DNA from: a bacterium
GTDB taxonomy: Bacteria > Patescibacteriota > Dojkabacteria > SC72
Assembly (NCBI GenBank): GCA_021108295.1
Contig: JAIORF010000102.1
Location: 295,963 to 359,962, forward strand
Reading direction: 5' to 3'
Length of the DNA: 64,000 nt
Below are positions 4,104 through 54,503 of the stretch, piece by piece (the stretch's first letter is position 1; each line of letters opens with the position of its first letter). Both the position numbers and the translations under genes were made by a program. Below the pieces are notes generated by a model that saw only the letters and a list, made by a program, of their open reading frames with translations, did not search any database and was not told the DNA's origin.

Positions 4104-4841
4104 ATGGCCAAAACGAACTTAAAACAAAGTAGTGGTCTGCCCTTTTTTTTTAATGGTGAAACTATTCTCTCTGAAGAATTTCATCCAAAAGAAACCTCCA
4201 CTATACATATTGAAGATATTAAGCCTCAGCTTCTTAATCTTGATTTAGATTGTCCAGAAACCTTTTACACCAAATACAAGGATTTTGATAATCAGGCTCA
4301 AGATCTTAAAAATGCCGATCTCCGTGTAAATATGTACTTAATGAAACCTAATTTAGCAGGTATTGAGTTTACTAAATCCAAAGCTACAAAATGTAGTAGT
4401 TTTCCAAGACTCTTTGAAATTGTCTATGGTGGTGGGAATGTGTTACTTCAAAAATATACAGGTCCAATTCAGAACAAAGTGTATAGGCTTCAGGTGAAAA
4501 AAGGTAGTAAGTTCATTGTACCCCCAGGATATTCCATTTGTTTGATTAATACTAGACAAGCTTCTACATTAATCGCTATAGAGATATCCTGTAGAAAAGC
4601 TAGAACTCGCGTAGCGCTTGAAGATAAGCGTGGCATGTCCTATTATATTATTAGGAAGAACGCTAAAGTAGAAATAGTTAGAAATCCTGCCTACAAAATT
4701 ATTAACGATATTGAGGAAATTAATATTAACAAGGTTCTTAAAAGTTGGAATATTACTGCAAAGACACCGATACTTAAACAAATATTAAGAAACCATGAAA
4801 AGTTTGATTGGATATTTAAGAAAAGCGATATGGATTTCTAG
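4104..4841 (+). CDS. hypothetical protein, cupin-like (resembles cupin-type glucose-6-phosphate isomerase but lacks the metal-binding His)
   Basis: Segment VYGGGNVLLQ...FIVPPGYSICLINT...LIAIEI parallels cupin-PGI KGKGGMLLQ...VYVPPYWAHRTVN...FLAIYP. The HxH...E...H ligands are replaced. Confidence 0.3.
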   Translation: MAKTNLKQSSGLPFFFNGETILSEEFHPKETSTIHIEDIKPQLLNLDLDCPETFYTKYKDFDNQAQDLKNADLRVNMYLMKPNLAGIEFTKSKATKCSSFPRLFEIVYGGGNVLLQKYTGPIQNKVYRLQVKKGSKFIVPPGYSICLINTRQASTLIAIEISCRKARTRVALEDKRGMSYYIIRKNAKVEIVRNPAYKIINDIEEININKVLKSWNITAKTPILKQILRNHEKFDWIFKKSDMDF

Positions 4842-48055: not shown

Positions 48056-48103
48056 GTAGATGTTTTAGAATGTAAAGAGGGGGCATATGCCCCCTTTTGT
48101 TTT

Positions 48104-50683: not shown

Positions 50684-51009
50684 CGTTCTTTCCTTTTTCT
50701 CTAGTCTAATAGGACACATCCAACTTTCTTGACAATATCACCTCCTTAAAGGTTCTTACATAACATATTTAATATTTACTTTTTAAAGATCTCTTTAGTT
50801 TGCTTTCATTAAGAAAAAGTTCTCAAACTACTCACAAACCCAAATTTGATTGACAATACAAAATTGTACAATCGCTATAATATAGCCTATAATACGCAGA
50901 TTGTCAATCTACAAACACCCTCACAGACTTCTTTTTCTATGAAAGATTTTGTATAATATAACCTTACACATTGTAGAATGTGAAGTATTTATATTACACC
51001 TAAGTAACC

Positions 51010-51606
51010 ATGAAAATAGCTATAATCCTCCTCTATGGTCTATACGACCCCAAAAATACTAACTACCAAGCATATTTCGACTTTCTAATTACAGAAATTA
51101 AAAAACAGAAATTCGACAAAGTAATACTCTGTGGAGGCTATACATTCCCTCATATAGAAAATATCTCTGAAGCAGAATCTGCAAAAAGATATCTACAATC
51201 AAAATCTCAGTATGATGACTACATCCTCGAGGATAAGTCTATAAACACTAATCAAAACTTAGAATTTGCCTCAAAACACATATCTAGCAAAGACGACTTG
51301 TTTGTATACGGCGATTGGATAAGGATAGCAAAAATATCTTGGATATCTGCACACTTCCTTCTTAAAGAAAGCCTTGAGAACATCTTTAATGCAATGATGC
51401 AATTTGTATACAAAAAGGAGCCCTACAAACCATTCACCATGAAGAACCTAACTGTAATAGGGTATGATTTCAAAGGAAAATCTAAAGAAGAGATGGTAGG
51501 ACAAACTTTCGCGACTCTCTTCGATGTCATTTCTCTATACAACAAAGACTTTGAGAAACAAAATATAGATCAAAGAAAGAAAGATTTCGGATTAAATAAC
51601 TCTTAA
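51010..51606 (+). CDS. DUF218 (YdcF-like) domain protein
   Basis: KVILCGGYTFPHIENISEAESAKRYL matches the DUF218 core. Confidence 0.5.
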   Translation: MKIAIILLYGLYDPKNTNYQAYFDFLITEIKKQKFDKVILCGGYTFPHIENISEAESAKRYLQSKSQYDDYILEDKSINTNQNLEFASKHISSKDDLFVYGDWIRIAKISWISAHFLLKESLENIFNAMMQFVYKKEPYKPFTMKNLTVIGYDFKGKSKEEMVGQTFATLFDVISLYNKDFEKQNIDQRKKDFGLNNS

Positions 51607-52876: not shown

Positions 52877-53877
52877 ACAAACTTCATACCCATAGCTTTC
52901 TCCACTTCACTGATTACCTCCCTTGCATTAGCCTTAGCCAACCTCTTACCCTTCTCTAATACCCCTAATACATAATCATCAGATACTGAAGCCTTCTTCT
53001 TCTGAAAAGCCTTTAGAAACCCTTCCATCACCTCCATCAAAAGGCTCTTAAACTCACCCATTACCTGCTCCCCATCCAAATGCTTCTGTAAGATACTCTC
53101 AAATTCATTTTTCTGTTCATCAGTAGATACATAATCAGCAATTAGCTTCAAACTCTTTAAATCCTCACTCATATCCCCTGCAAAAGCACTCTTTGCTCGC
53201 TTAATCTTCTTGAGAGAAACATCAATATCATCATCCAGTAATATTGCACCATTAGGCTCACTCTTACTCATCTTCTTACCACTACCAGTAAGTGAAAGGA
53301 TATTGATTCCTTCACCACTATCAAGTGGCTTTGAAGCTAGAAATACATCCCCATACTTTTTGTTAAAACGCTTTACCAAATCATTTGTAACCTCTAAATG
53401 AACATACTGATCCTTGCCCACAGGAACATACCTAGAACCCTGAAGTAATATATCAGCAGCCATCATTACAGGGTAAAAAGCAAGAAGAGTATTAGCTGTA
53501 GCTTCACCATTCCCTTTTTTAATTTTCTCTTTAAGAGTAGGTACTCTAAGTAGTTCTGCTACTGTAATTAATCTAGAAAGATATATGGTCAACTTACTAA
53601 CCTCATCCATTATCTGACTCTGCACAAAAAGATCCACCTTCTTTGGATCTAGACCAGCTGCAATGTAATCTTTGATAACGGAAAGAACATTACCCTGAGT
53701 TTCACTAGGCTCTTCAGTTGTAAGACTGTGTAAATCTGCAACAAAAATCATTGGCTTGCCCAATGAACCATCTTGCATAATGCGAAGTATTGGATCAACA
53801 ACACCTATTAGATTAGCAATACTCATACCAGAAGTAGCTCTCATTCCAGTAAATATATCTGTTTTGTAATTTTTCAT
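52873..53877 (-). CDS. trpS: tryptophan--tRNA ligase
   Basis: Class I aaRS. N-terminal TGMRATSGMSIANLIG (HIGH-region variant) and KMSKS (GSGKKMSKSEPN). Confidence 0.9.
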   Translation of the reverse strand: MKNYKTDIFTGMRATSGMSIANLIGVVDPILRIMQDGSLGKPMIFVADLHSLTTEEPSETQGNVLSVIKDYIAAGLDPKKVDLFVQSQIMDEVSKLTIYLSRLITVAELLRVPTLKEKIKKGNGEATANTLLAFYPVMMAADILLQGSRYVPVGKDQYVHLEVTNDLVKRFNKKYGDVFLASKPLDSGEGINILSLTGSGKKMSKSEPNGAILLDDDIDVSLKKIKRAKSAFAGDMSEDLKSLKLIADYVSTDEQKNEFESILQKHLDGEQVMGEFKSLLMEVMEGFLKAFQKKKASVSDDYVLGVLEKGKRLAKANAREVISEVEKAMGMKFV

Positions 53878-53920
53878 TTTATTTTTATTTAATTAATTAA
53901 TTAATATATTGTACAGATTC

Positions 53921-53952
53921 TTGTGAAAAACAAAAACCCCACATATGTGGGG
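53921..53952 (-). terminator. intrinsic terminator of the trpS leader
   Basis: CCCCACAUAUGUGGGG hairpin (53937-53952) followed on the minus strand by UUUUUGUUUUUC. Confidence 0.6.
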
Positions 53953-53981
53953 TATATAATTCATATGAAAAAACAAAATTA

Positions 53982-54038
53982 CTACCCCAAAAGGTAGCTC
54001 CACCAAAACATTATTGTATTAATCTTATTGTTTTCCAT
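53982..54038 (-). CDS. putative trpS leader peptide MENNKINTIMFWWSYLLG (tandem Trp codons at 54000-54005)
   Basis: 18 codons plus UAG. The two UGG codons sit on segment 1 of the attenuator and the stop codon lies inside segment 2. A TATAAT lies 5 nt upstream of the AUG, which could make the mRNA leaderless. Confidence 0.5.
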   Translation of the reverse strand: MENNKINTIMFWWSYLLG

Positions 54039-54122
54039 ACGTTATTATACAACATCCCTACATTTTAAACTACTTGAGAATAATGTAACATGTATTAGAA
54101 ATTAAAATTAATATACACACCA

Positions 54123-54503
54123 ATGACAAAGAACAAACAAATATACAAATGTGGAATATGTGGAAATGTTGTAGAAATACTACACGAAGGATCAGATACT
54201 CTTGTATGCTGCAAGAAGCCAATGAGACTACTACAAGAACAAAATGACGAACATGGATTAGAAAAACATGTACCAATAGTTAAGCAAAATGGACAAACTG
54301 TAATTGTTACAGTAGGCAGTACTACACACCCTATGGAGGACTCACACTATATCGAATGGGTTGAGTTAATAGTAGATGGAGAAATACTAAGAAAACATTT
54401 TACTCCTACGGATAAGGCAGAGGTCAAGTTTTTAATTACTCGACCATCCCTTGAGATAAGGGCTAGAGCATACTGCAACGTACATGGGCTTTGGAGAAGT
54501 TAA
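54123..54503 (+). CDS. dfx: desulfoferrodoxin / superoxide reductase (2Fe-SOR)
   Basis: N-terminal desulforedoxin-like YKCGICGNVVEILHEGSDTLVCCKKPM. Neelaredoxin domain EKHVP...HPMEDSHYIEW...CNVHGLW. Confidence 0.85.
   Translation: MTKNKQIYKCGICGNVVEILHEGSDTLVCCKKPMRLLQEQNDEHGLEKHVPIVKQNGQTVIVTVGSTTHPMEDSHYIEWVELIVDGEILRKHFTPTDKAEVKFLITRPSLEIRARAYCNVHGLWRS

Follow-up and report, generated by a model that had tools for sequence, protein, structure and literature searches.

Background

Patescibacteria, or the candidate phyla radiation (CPR), are bacteria with tiny genomes that generally lack amino-acid biosynthesis, and their gene regulation is almost unexplored. In Streptomyces, an attenuator of the trpS type with a leader carrying tryptophan (Trp) codons was reportedly described by Vecchione & Sello in 2010. 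Classical attenuators lie before trpS in this genus (PMC1262725), and leader peptides of S. lividans, including TrpL2 before trpS, are transcribed leaderless (PMC8079986). Here we examine the region upstream of trpS in a 64 kb stretch of Dojkabacteria DNA with 37% GC (contig JAIORF010000102.1; this whole stretch is called the window below), where the minus strand carries a short open reading frame (ORF) with tandem Trp codons, alternative hairpins and an intrinsic terminator. We conclude that this element is most probably a ribosome-mediated leader-peptide transcription attenuator that tunes trpS to the supply of charged tRNA-Trp. Such a switch would be of the textbook kind, raising synthetase output when charged tRNA-Trp runs low, and is apparently unreported before in this bacterial group: we found no literature joining CPR or Patescibacteria with attenuation or leader peptides, which is absence of evidence and not proof.

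The TrpS of the window is 100% identical to a protein from a metagenome-assembled genome (MAG), and its closest named relatives are from Candidatus Dojkabacteria and Patescibacteria, in agreement with an original prediction, made from the sequence alone, that the genome might be CPR-like. In these groups trpS homologues carry the name tryptophan--tRNA ligase.

A Trp-codon leader is conserved upstream of trpS

The original prediction placed directly ahead of trpS an 18-codon ORF with two adjacent UGG codons, a set of hairpins and a terminator with a U-run. All are present, essentially at the positions it gave (Table 1). In one respect it has to be corrected, in that the UGG pair was placed on segment 1 of the hairpins and actually lies 5' of it, at a distance of 1-4 nt; segment 1 would still be covered by a ribosome whose A site holds UGG.

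Is such an arrangement to be expected by chance? Across 55 long ORFs of the window, 1.10% of codons are TGG; among 18,019 positions there are 4 instances of WW, and the probability of WW in an 18-codon ORF is about 0.002. Together with the retention of the arrangement in 13 distinct orthologous loci, this upholds the earlier argument that a tandem UGG is unlikely to stand here fortuitously. Under a strict scan for intrinsic terminators (stems of 6 bp or more, 4 or more of them G-C, and 6 or more U among 8 nt), the 64 kb hold two strong hairpin and U-run terminators, against 0.7 in shuffles, so strong terminators of this kind are rare in this genome. That of the trpS leader is the sole one in a 5' region. 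The other, at 48075-48098 (+), reads AAGAGGGGGCATATGCCCCCTTTT then GTTTTTTA and lies 19 nt past the stop codon of a gene. The gene upstream of the leader, which encodes desulfoferrodoxin, is divergent, so the leader terminator ends no upstream gene and can act only on a transcript begun in this intergenic region.

Homologous loci were gathered from a genome collection, a metagenome scan and twelve contig look-ups, with TrpS rather than the leader as bait. This gave 13 distinct leaders from 18 Dojkabacteria trpS loci, the TrpS proteins of the 13 being 64-100% identical to the query. An in-frame Trp codon is kept in all 13 leaders and the frame from AUG to Trp is open in each. The leader ORF, its Trp codons and all three hairpins are thus retained across the set, conservation having been the first check to which the proposal was open. 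Invariant in the alignment are the AUG, UGGUG, GGGGUAG, UUUUGUU, the G/C core of the terminator and the U-run, whereas drift is seen in codons 2-11 (identity 0.64) and in the stretch that separates segment 2 from segment 3 (0.58). Within the ORF, conservation is highest at the Trp codons (0.97, against the 0.64 of codons 2-11).

Within codons 2-11, identity by codon position is 0.71/0.70/0.52, third positions varying most, and the sole indel within the ORF is one of 3 nt (in L015 and L103); judged from the alignment, both features would fit a translated frame. The ORF ends at the UAG in segment 2 or at an earlier UAG in the loop of hairpin 1:2, the RNA being unchanged. The C-terminal part of the peptide, FWW(F/Y)YL, is aromatic and conserved. 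The 13 distinct leader peptides are MENNKINTIMFWWSYLLG, MENNKINTMMFWWFYLLG, MENNKVNTKMFWWFYLLG, MENRIVRTNITWWLYLLG, MNNKTFDTRVFWCSYLLG, MKNKTLGVKRFWWCSL, MINKTLNTNFWWYYL, MKNKTLNTNLIWWFYLLG, MINKILNTRVWWFYL, MRNKTLNTNMIWWFYLKG, MRNKTIYTSNIWWFYL, MKNKTIYTSKVWWFYL and MENKTIYTNIFWWYYL.

Alternative pairing and covariation

The original prediction named three mutually exclusive helices, and folding and a hairpin scan confirm them: an anti-antiterminator between segments 1 and 2, an antiterminator between segments 2 and 3, and a terminator (3:4) followed by a U-run. The UAG stop codon can be read directly within segment 2, as had been claimed. The CCCC of segment 3 doubles as the 5' arm of the terminator, the stem of which has 7 bp, 5 of them G-C. 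Both hairpins, 1:2 and the terminator, were detected by the consensus scan and make up the minimum free energy (MFE) structure of the free leader of the window, and unguided RNAalifold likewise recovered 1:2 and 3:4.

Across the 13 sequences the terminator is 100% paired, with UA(7)/AU(6) at one pair and CG(11)/UG(1)/UA(1) at another. The antiterminator (GGGGUA.. with ..UACCCC) is 95.4% paired, with UA(7)/AU(2) at one pair and an AU(5)/GC(5) swap at another that is exclusive to this helix. The covariation score of either helix was reached by 0/500 shuffles, and pairing falls to 31-67% when the partner columns are slid by 1-3. The search for covariation in homologous trpS upstream regions, which had been put forward as a check, therefore turned up compensatory substitutions in the antiterminator and in the terminator alike.

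Helix 1:2 is 93% paired and almost invariant. It is enclosed by a further helix, P0, in which codons 3-5 (AACAAAAC in most relatives) pair with the invariant GUUUUGUU after the stop codon; P0 occurs in MFE folds of the free leader, is 92% paired and nearly invariant, and its 3' strand (UUUUGUU) overlaps the 3' part of segment 2. Pairing in P0 offers a reason for the nucleotide invariance of codons 3-5 and of the stretch after the stop, and the helix may reinforce the anti-antiterminator when the leader is untranslated. The A-rich 5' stretch of P0 is also complementary to the terminator U-run UUGUUUU, and RNAalifold picked that pairing instead. Hairpin 1:2 with its U-rich stretch was flagged as terminator-like, and could conceivably be a pause site that synchronises polymerase and ribosome.

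A model for attenuation of trpS

From this anatomy we infer the transcription start, translation of the ORF, stalling of the ribosome and regulated read-through, as follows. The TATAAT box would direct transcription to begin at or beside the leader AUG; the mRNA would thus be leaderless, and a 70S ribosome would load on its 5'-terminal AUG. With Trp-tRNA plentiful, the ribosome would reach the UAG and cover segment 2, segment 3 would pair with segment 4, and polymerase would halt at the U-run of the resulting terminator, about 48 nt before trpS. Were the leader left untranslated, P0 and 1:2 would lock segment 2, again with termination as the outcome. With Trp-tRNA scarce, the ribosome would stall with UGG in the A site, covering segment 1 and leaving segment 2 free to pair with segment 3 once this is made, so that no terminator would form and polymerase would read through into trpS.

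We modelled these ribosome states by masking the mRNA under the footprint before folding. The free full-length leader folds into 1:2 and the terminator in 13/13 cases. In transcripts that end before segment 4, a ribosome placed with UGG-1 in its A site gives the antiterminator in 13/13 at any footprint of +9 to +18 nt. Moving the ribosome to UGG-2 gives it in 13/13 for footprints up to +15, and moving it to the stop codon gives it in 0/13. Both of the alternative folds proposed earlier, 2:3 and 3:4, are therefore found, and 2:3 is competitive in all nascent RNAs with a ribosome on UGG-1. Calculated energies are -9.8 to -17.9 kcal/mol for the antiterminator and -8.2 to -12.0 kcal/mol for the terminator, by which the former would be at least as stable as the latter. 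With conservation and covariation, the masked folding supports the original interpretation of ribosome-mediated attenuation of trpS, and none of the computational checks that the prediction had named as able to refute it went against it.

Several observations weigh against this interpretation. First, helices 1:2 and P0 hardly vary, and covariation therefore offers neither support for them nor a test of them; the independent covariation events in the other helices are few, mostly amounting to one split between two subclades, and 13 sequences are too few for a formal test of covariation significance. Second, once segment 4 has been added to an RNA that carries a stalled ribosome, only 7/13 leaders have the antiterminator as their global optimum, so the switch must be kinetic, as in E. 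coli trp. Ribosome-free nascent RNA without segment 4 also prefers 2:3 in 7/13, and termination on an untranslated leader therefore depends on the order of co-transcriptional folding. Third, a block of sequence between terminator and trpS, described below, could be a second promoter, which would make the attenuator only part of trpS control. Finally, one lineage (L096/L097, leader at about 1340-1454, two independent samples) has only one Trp codon, the pair reading UGG UGU (Trp-Cys); all of its helices are intact, and its antiterminator is longer and more stable (-17.9 kcal/mol).

The retention of a single Trp codon in that lineage would also be in keeping with a ribosome-mediated switch that serves as a general sensor of translation stress, responding to an inhibitor of translation or of tryptophanyl-tRNA synthetase (TrpRS) rather than to Trp-tRNA specifically, much as antibiotic-responsive leader peptides do. 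Vecchione & Sello 2010 and Kitabatake 2002 are said to have reported that the Streptomyces counterpart governs an auxiliary, indolmycin-resistant TrpRS induced by antibiotic, which would lend such a sensor a precedent. However, the Trp codons are the very codons most strongly conserved in the ORF, their distance from segments 1 and 2 is precisely the one that produces a switch, and the gene seems, from its synteny, to be the lineage's housekeeping trpS. We therefore regard a general stress sensor as highly improbable.

Table 1. Coordinates of the trpS leader and of adjacent features in the window
Feature	Position	Strand	Basis or details
-10 promoter box TATAAT (P1)	54044-54049	-	read directly; invariant in 13/13 leaders
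Leader ORF, 18 codons plus UAG, MENNKINTIMFWWSYLLG	53982-54038	-	AUG 54038-54036, UAG 53984-53982
Tandem Trp codons UGG UGG, codons 12-13	54000-54005	-	tandem in 12/13 leaders
P0 5' strand, AACAAUAA here, AACAAAAC in most relatives, codons 3-5	54025-54032	-	MFE folds
P0 3' strand, UUUUGUU	53972-53979	-	
Segment 1, GCUACCU, 5' arm of anti-antiterminator hairpin 1:2	53992-53998	-	hairpin scan; RNAalifold
Hairpin 1:2, GCUACCU/GGGUAGU	53998-53981	-	3' arm 53987-53981
Segment 2, UGGGGUAGUAAUUU, pairs with segment 1 or segment 3	53976-53989	-	folding, alignment
Segment 3, GAAUUAUAUACCCCA, antiterminator 3' arm	53948-53962	-	helix 2:3 pairing
Intrinsic terminator, stem ACCCCAC/GUGGGGU, loop AUAU, then UUUUGUUUUU	53926-53953	-	stem-loop 53953-53936; hairpin scan, alignment
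18-nt block TGTACAATATATTAATTA between terminator and trpS	53898-53915	-	invariant in leader loci
trpS, tryptophan--tRNA ligase, 334 aa	52873-53877	-	TIGR00233, 238.9 bits vs cut-off 176.75
Desulfoferrodoxin gene	54123-54503	+	divergent from the leader
PGA_cap-family gene, 571 aa	54500-56215	-	3' end overlaps that of the desulfoferrodoxin gene by 4 nt (54500-54503)

A predicted leaderless start for the leader transcript

The original prediction suggested that the leader ORF may itself be leaderless, and three kinds of observation point the same way. First, the spacer between P1 and the leader AUG is 5 nt (AACGU), and TATAAT-N5/6-AUG spacing holds in 13/13 leaders. The published signature of leaderless bacterial genes is TANNNT about 12 bp before the start (PMC3160421), which the position of P1 would fit. 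Second, motifs resembling a Shine-Dalgarno (SD) sequence stand ahead of only 4/56 long ORFs of the window, while a -10-like hexamer (at least 5/6 consensus positions) lies 4-8 nt before a start codon in 18/56. Third, of the exact TATAAT-N4-8-ATG sites in the window, 6/12 open ORFs of 192-379 aa; examples have the ATG at 4104 (+), 8183 (-), 18529 (-), 42925 (+) and 58581 (-). The genome seems, on these counts, to rely on leaderless or otherwise SD-independent initiation, and a transcription start at or beside the leader AUG, giving a leaderless mRNA, is predicted.

In lineages without a leader (L017, L018, L099, L107) it is trpS itself that lies 5-8 nt past a TATAAT.

Distribution and a natural deletion

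How widely is the leader distributed? When the 350 nt ahead of trpS were scanned blind in about 40 loci, a WW ORF with a terminator appeared in every locus where TrpS is at least 68% identical to the query and in none where identity is 53% or less; such scanning likewise gave nothing comparable for about 40 loci whose TrpS is less than 60% identical. In a neighbour-joining (NJ) tree of TrpS, made without bootstrap, the leader-bearing sequences form one clade, the leader-less L099 falling outside it, and the leader is present upstream of trpS in every sampled locus of that clade, one lineage excepted. A covariance model (R1) built from the 13 leaders recovered only its training set and duplicates from 78 sources (307 kb, including the whole window and distant trpS loci), with no diverged copies elsewhere, and a search of viral contigs with the leader DNA pattern gave 0 matches.

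The excepted lineage (L107 and L108, TrpS P0029, 67% identical to the query) is nested within the leader clade, beside L098. Here the trpS ATG replaces the leader ATG (1463-1501 in L107): upstream of trpS, the locus is collinear with L103 through the 3' end of a PGA_cap gene and the intergenic region as far as the TATAAT, and the trpS ATG follows 6 nt past this box. The ORF, hairpins, terminator and 18-nt block have been lost together, with promoter P1 retained, so that these loci are in effect a natural deletion of the attenuator. The retention of P1 directly before trpS in L107 speaks for P1 as a trpS promoter, and for an essential gene being able to function with its start 5-6 nt past TATAAT.

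An invariant block before trpS

Between the terminator and trpS lies an 18-nt block, TGTACAATATAT(A/T)AATTA, also given as TGTACAATATATWAATTA, which the original prediction had passed over and which is present in 17/17 leader-bearing loci and in 0/93 other loci. The loci with the block are the window, L001, L002, L003, L015, L016, L095-L098, L100, L101, L103-L106, L109 and L110. Its end lies 16 nt from the trpS ATG in 15/17 loci, the exceptions being L015 (17 nt) and the window (20 nt); the 16 nt in between vary in sequence. The block contains a -10-like hexamer, TACAAT; no -35 element is kept in position before it, and L098 has a 10-nt deletion there. The block could be a second promoter, an operator or an SD-independent element for initiation of translation.

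Two general explanations of the block were tried and rejected. As a promoter motif at large it is not convincing, TGTACAAT occurring 8 times in the window against 3.25 expected and mostly within genes. As an RNA structure formed with the trpS start it has no consensus structure and energies no better than shuffles, the trpS start region being if anything less structured than these. Elsewhere in the window, a palindromic ATTGTACAAT at 50863-50872 resembles the start of the block and lies in a divergent intergenic region, between genes ending at about 50737 (-) and starting at 51010 (+). TTGTACA-like sequences also occur upstream of the leader promoter in relatives L003, L098 and L106.

The invariance of the block, its fixed distance from the trpS ATG and the TACAAT within it are what would be expected if trpS had a promoter of its own in or near the TGTACAATATAT block. 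The short ORF and terminator would then be an independent small gene for a hydrophobic peptide or a small RNA, and nothing would be attenuated. The conserved aromatic C-terminus and the third-position bias, which suggests some coding constraint, could be read in the same way, and there is precedent from Sinorhizobium, where attenuator-derived RNAs and leader peptides are reported to act in trans (PMC6614838, PMC7298713). However, the C-terminal codons that are conserved are exactly those of segments 1 and 2, so their conservation is explained by RNA pairing, and the stop codon shifts (16, 17 or 19 codons) without change to the RNA. A simple small gene has no use for an antiterminator that shows a compensatory AU/GC swap, and the element occurs only before trpS, once per locus. 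Nor does the deletion in L107 agree with this view, as ORF, terminator and block went together and yet P1 was kept for trpS, and no -35 element holds its position before the block. A small gene independent of trpS is thus very unlikely.

Attenuation may still be combined with a second layer of control. The block would then be an undescribed element, either an SD-independent initiation or standby site for read-through mRNA or an operator or second promoter that sets basal trpS expression, and in addition the terminated leader RNA of about 110 nt, or the aromatic peptide, could act in trans, like rnTrpL and peTrpL of Sinorhizobium. We hold this extension to be unlikely.

Searches against known RNA families

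The best match in Rfam, over a 401-nt region, is Trp_leader (RF00513), at 23.5 bits and E = 0.014, below the gathering score of 41; there was no match to this family at E <= 1 in 10 other leader-bearing loci. T-box, riboswitch and other Rfam families were sought both permissively and at gathering score, and the region, the window, the 20 distant trpS loci and 10 leader-bearing loci that were covered yielded only tRNAs, the sub-threshold Trp_leader and chance matches. The element thus falls below the gathering score of every Rfam family.

Firmicutes aminoacyl-tRNA synthetase genes are typically under T-box control (PMC1262725), and a UGG could in principle act as a specifier codon, which raises the alternative that the hairpin switch is sensed by tRNA-Trp in T-box fashion, by a TRAP-like protein or by a small molecule, the ORF being incidental. 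A weak match to the trpB motif (RF04312; 18 bits, E = 5.3) might also be cited in its favour. Yet there is no match to the T-box family (RF00230) at E <= 10 in 53800-54200, and none at gathering score in the window or in the 20 distant trpS loci; only 33 nt separate the predicted 5' end from the UGG, which leaves no room for Stem I, and the nucleotide that follows UGG UGG can be A, U or C, whereas the UGGN of a T-box has to match a fixed discriminator base. TRAP-dependent attenuation needs nine to eleven (G/U)AG triplets, spaced 2-3 nt apart and overlapping the antiterminator, and 53925-54038 holds only one UAG and one GAG. The trpB motif score is at chance level, far below its gathering score of 59, and that family is found in Firmicutes and Fusobacteria (PMC11109978). 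This alternative would moreover leave unexplained the invariant AUG at leaderless distance, the preserved frame and the stop codon within segment 2. We consider sensing without the ribosome extremely improbable.

Genomic context

The desulfoferrodoxin gene upstream of the leader and the PGA_cap-family gene beyond it are convergent (Table 1). In several relatives (L001, L002, L103), which have no desulfoferrodoxin gene, the leader is immediately preceded by PGA_cap on its own strand. In L103 (3130-3390) and L106 (3730-3990) a gene for an 86-aa protein with an Amphi-Trp domain (PF20068) is found near trpS.

Comparison with known systems

Four of the features by which leader-peptide attenuators are recognised are found at this locus: a Trp-codon ORF, an intervening terminator, a competing antiterminator and, in the model, an appropriate geometry of stall and stop. 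If the reading as a ribosome-mediated attenuator is true, scavenging bacteria monitor the charging of tRNA-Trp and adjust synthetase levels to it, and transcription-translation coupling, intrinsic termination and translation from a 5'-terminal AUG would be implied for this lineage. Annotators gain a concrete RNA family, with an alignment of 13 sequences, a structure and a covariance model, and L107 provides a compact, naturally deleted control.

The likeness to E. coli trpL is close in layout, with tandem UGG late in a short ORF, a 1:2 / 2:3 / 3:4 topology, a stop codon placed so that a ribosome which has finished would block segment 2, and a U-run terminator. However, trpL controls biosynthetic genes and has an SD-led ORF, whereas the Dojkabacteria element has a synthetase gene as its target, a predicted leaderless ORF and the extra helix P0. 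On sequence grounds, then, the resemblance to the E. coli Trp_leader is one of analogy, not of membership. E. coli pheST, with its leader pheM, is likewise a classical leader-peptide attenuator that governs an aminoacyl-tRNA synthetase operon through cognate codons (PMC1262725), but it uses Phe codons and an SD-led ORF, belongs to the gamma-proteobacteria and has no sequence relationship to the element described here.

The Streptomyces systems (S. coelicolor trpRS1, S. avermitilis trpS2 and S. lividans trpL2-trpS) share both the arrangement, a Trp-codon leader ORF and alternative hairpins before a TrpRS gene, and the logic, in which a stall at UGG reports low Trp-tRNA and raises TrpRS. The differences are nevertheless considerable. 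S. lividans TrpL2 has one Trp codon and no U-run, as against tandem UGG and a canonical U-run terminator in the Dojkabacteria leader; in S. coelicolor the controlled gene is an antibiotic-resistant auxiliary copy, whereas here it is apparently the syntenic housekeeping trpS; and Streptomyces is a GC-rich Actinobacterium, in contrast to a Patescibacterium of 37% GC. In a comparison confined to the peptide level, the Streptomyces peptide MMTRTCTQLWRAA (PMC8079986) shows no resemblance to MENNKINTIMFWWSYLLG, and an origin independent of the Streptomyces leaders is likely.

Two further systems share part of the logic. The leaderless short polycysteine ORFs of mycobacteria also use a stalled ribosome to remodel downstream RNA according to the supply of the cognate amino acid (bioRxiv 10.1101/834739), but they act on translation, whereas the output in Dojkabacteria is an intrinsic terminator 48 nt before the gene, so that control is transcriptional. 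The T-box of Firmicutes also makes a choice between terminator and antiterminator on a synthetase gene in response to tRNA charging, but it reads uncharged tRNA directly, through Stem I and the T-box bulge over about 200 nt, and the Dojkabacteria element carries no T-box signal. Since leaderless Trp leader peptides before trpS are known from Streptomyces (PMC8079986), the novelty of the Dojkabacteria leader is taxonomic, not mechanistic: it would extend a classical mechanism to a new phylum and overturn nothing.

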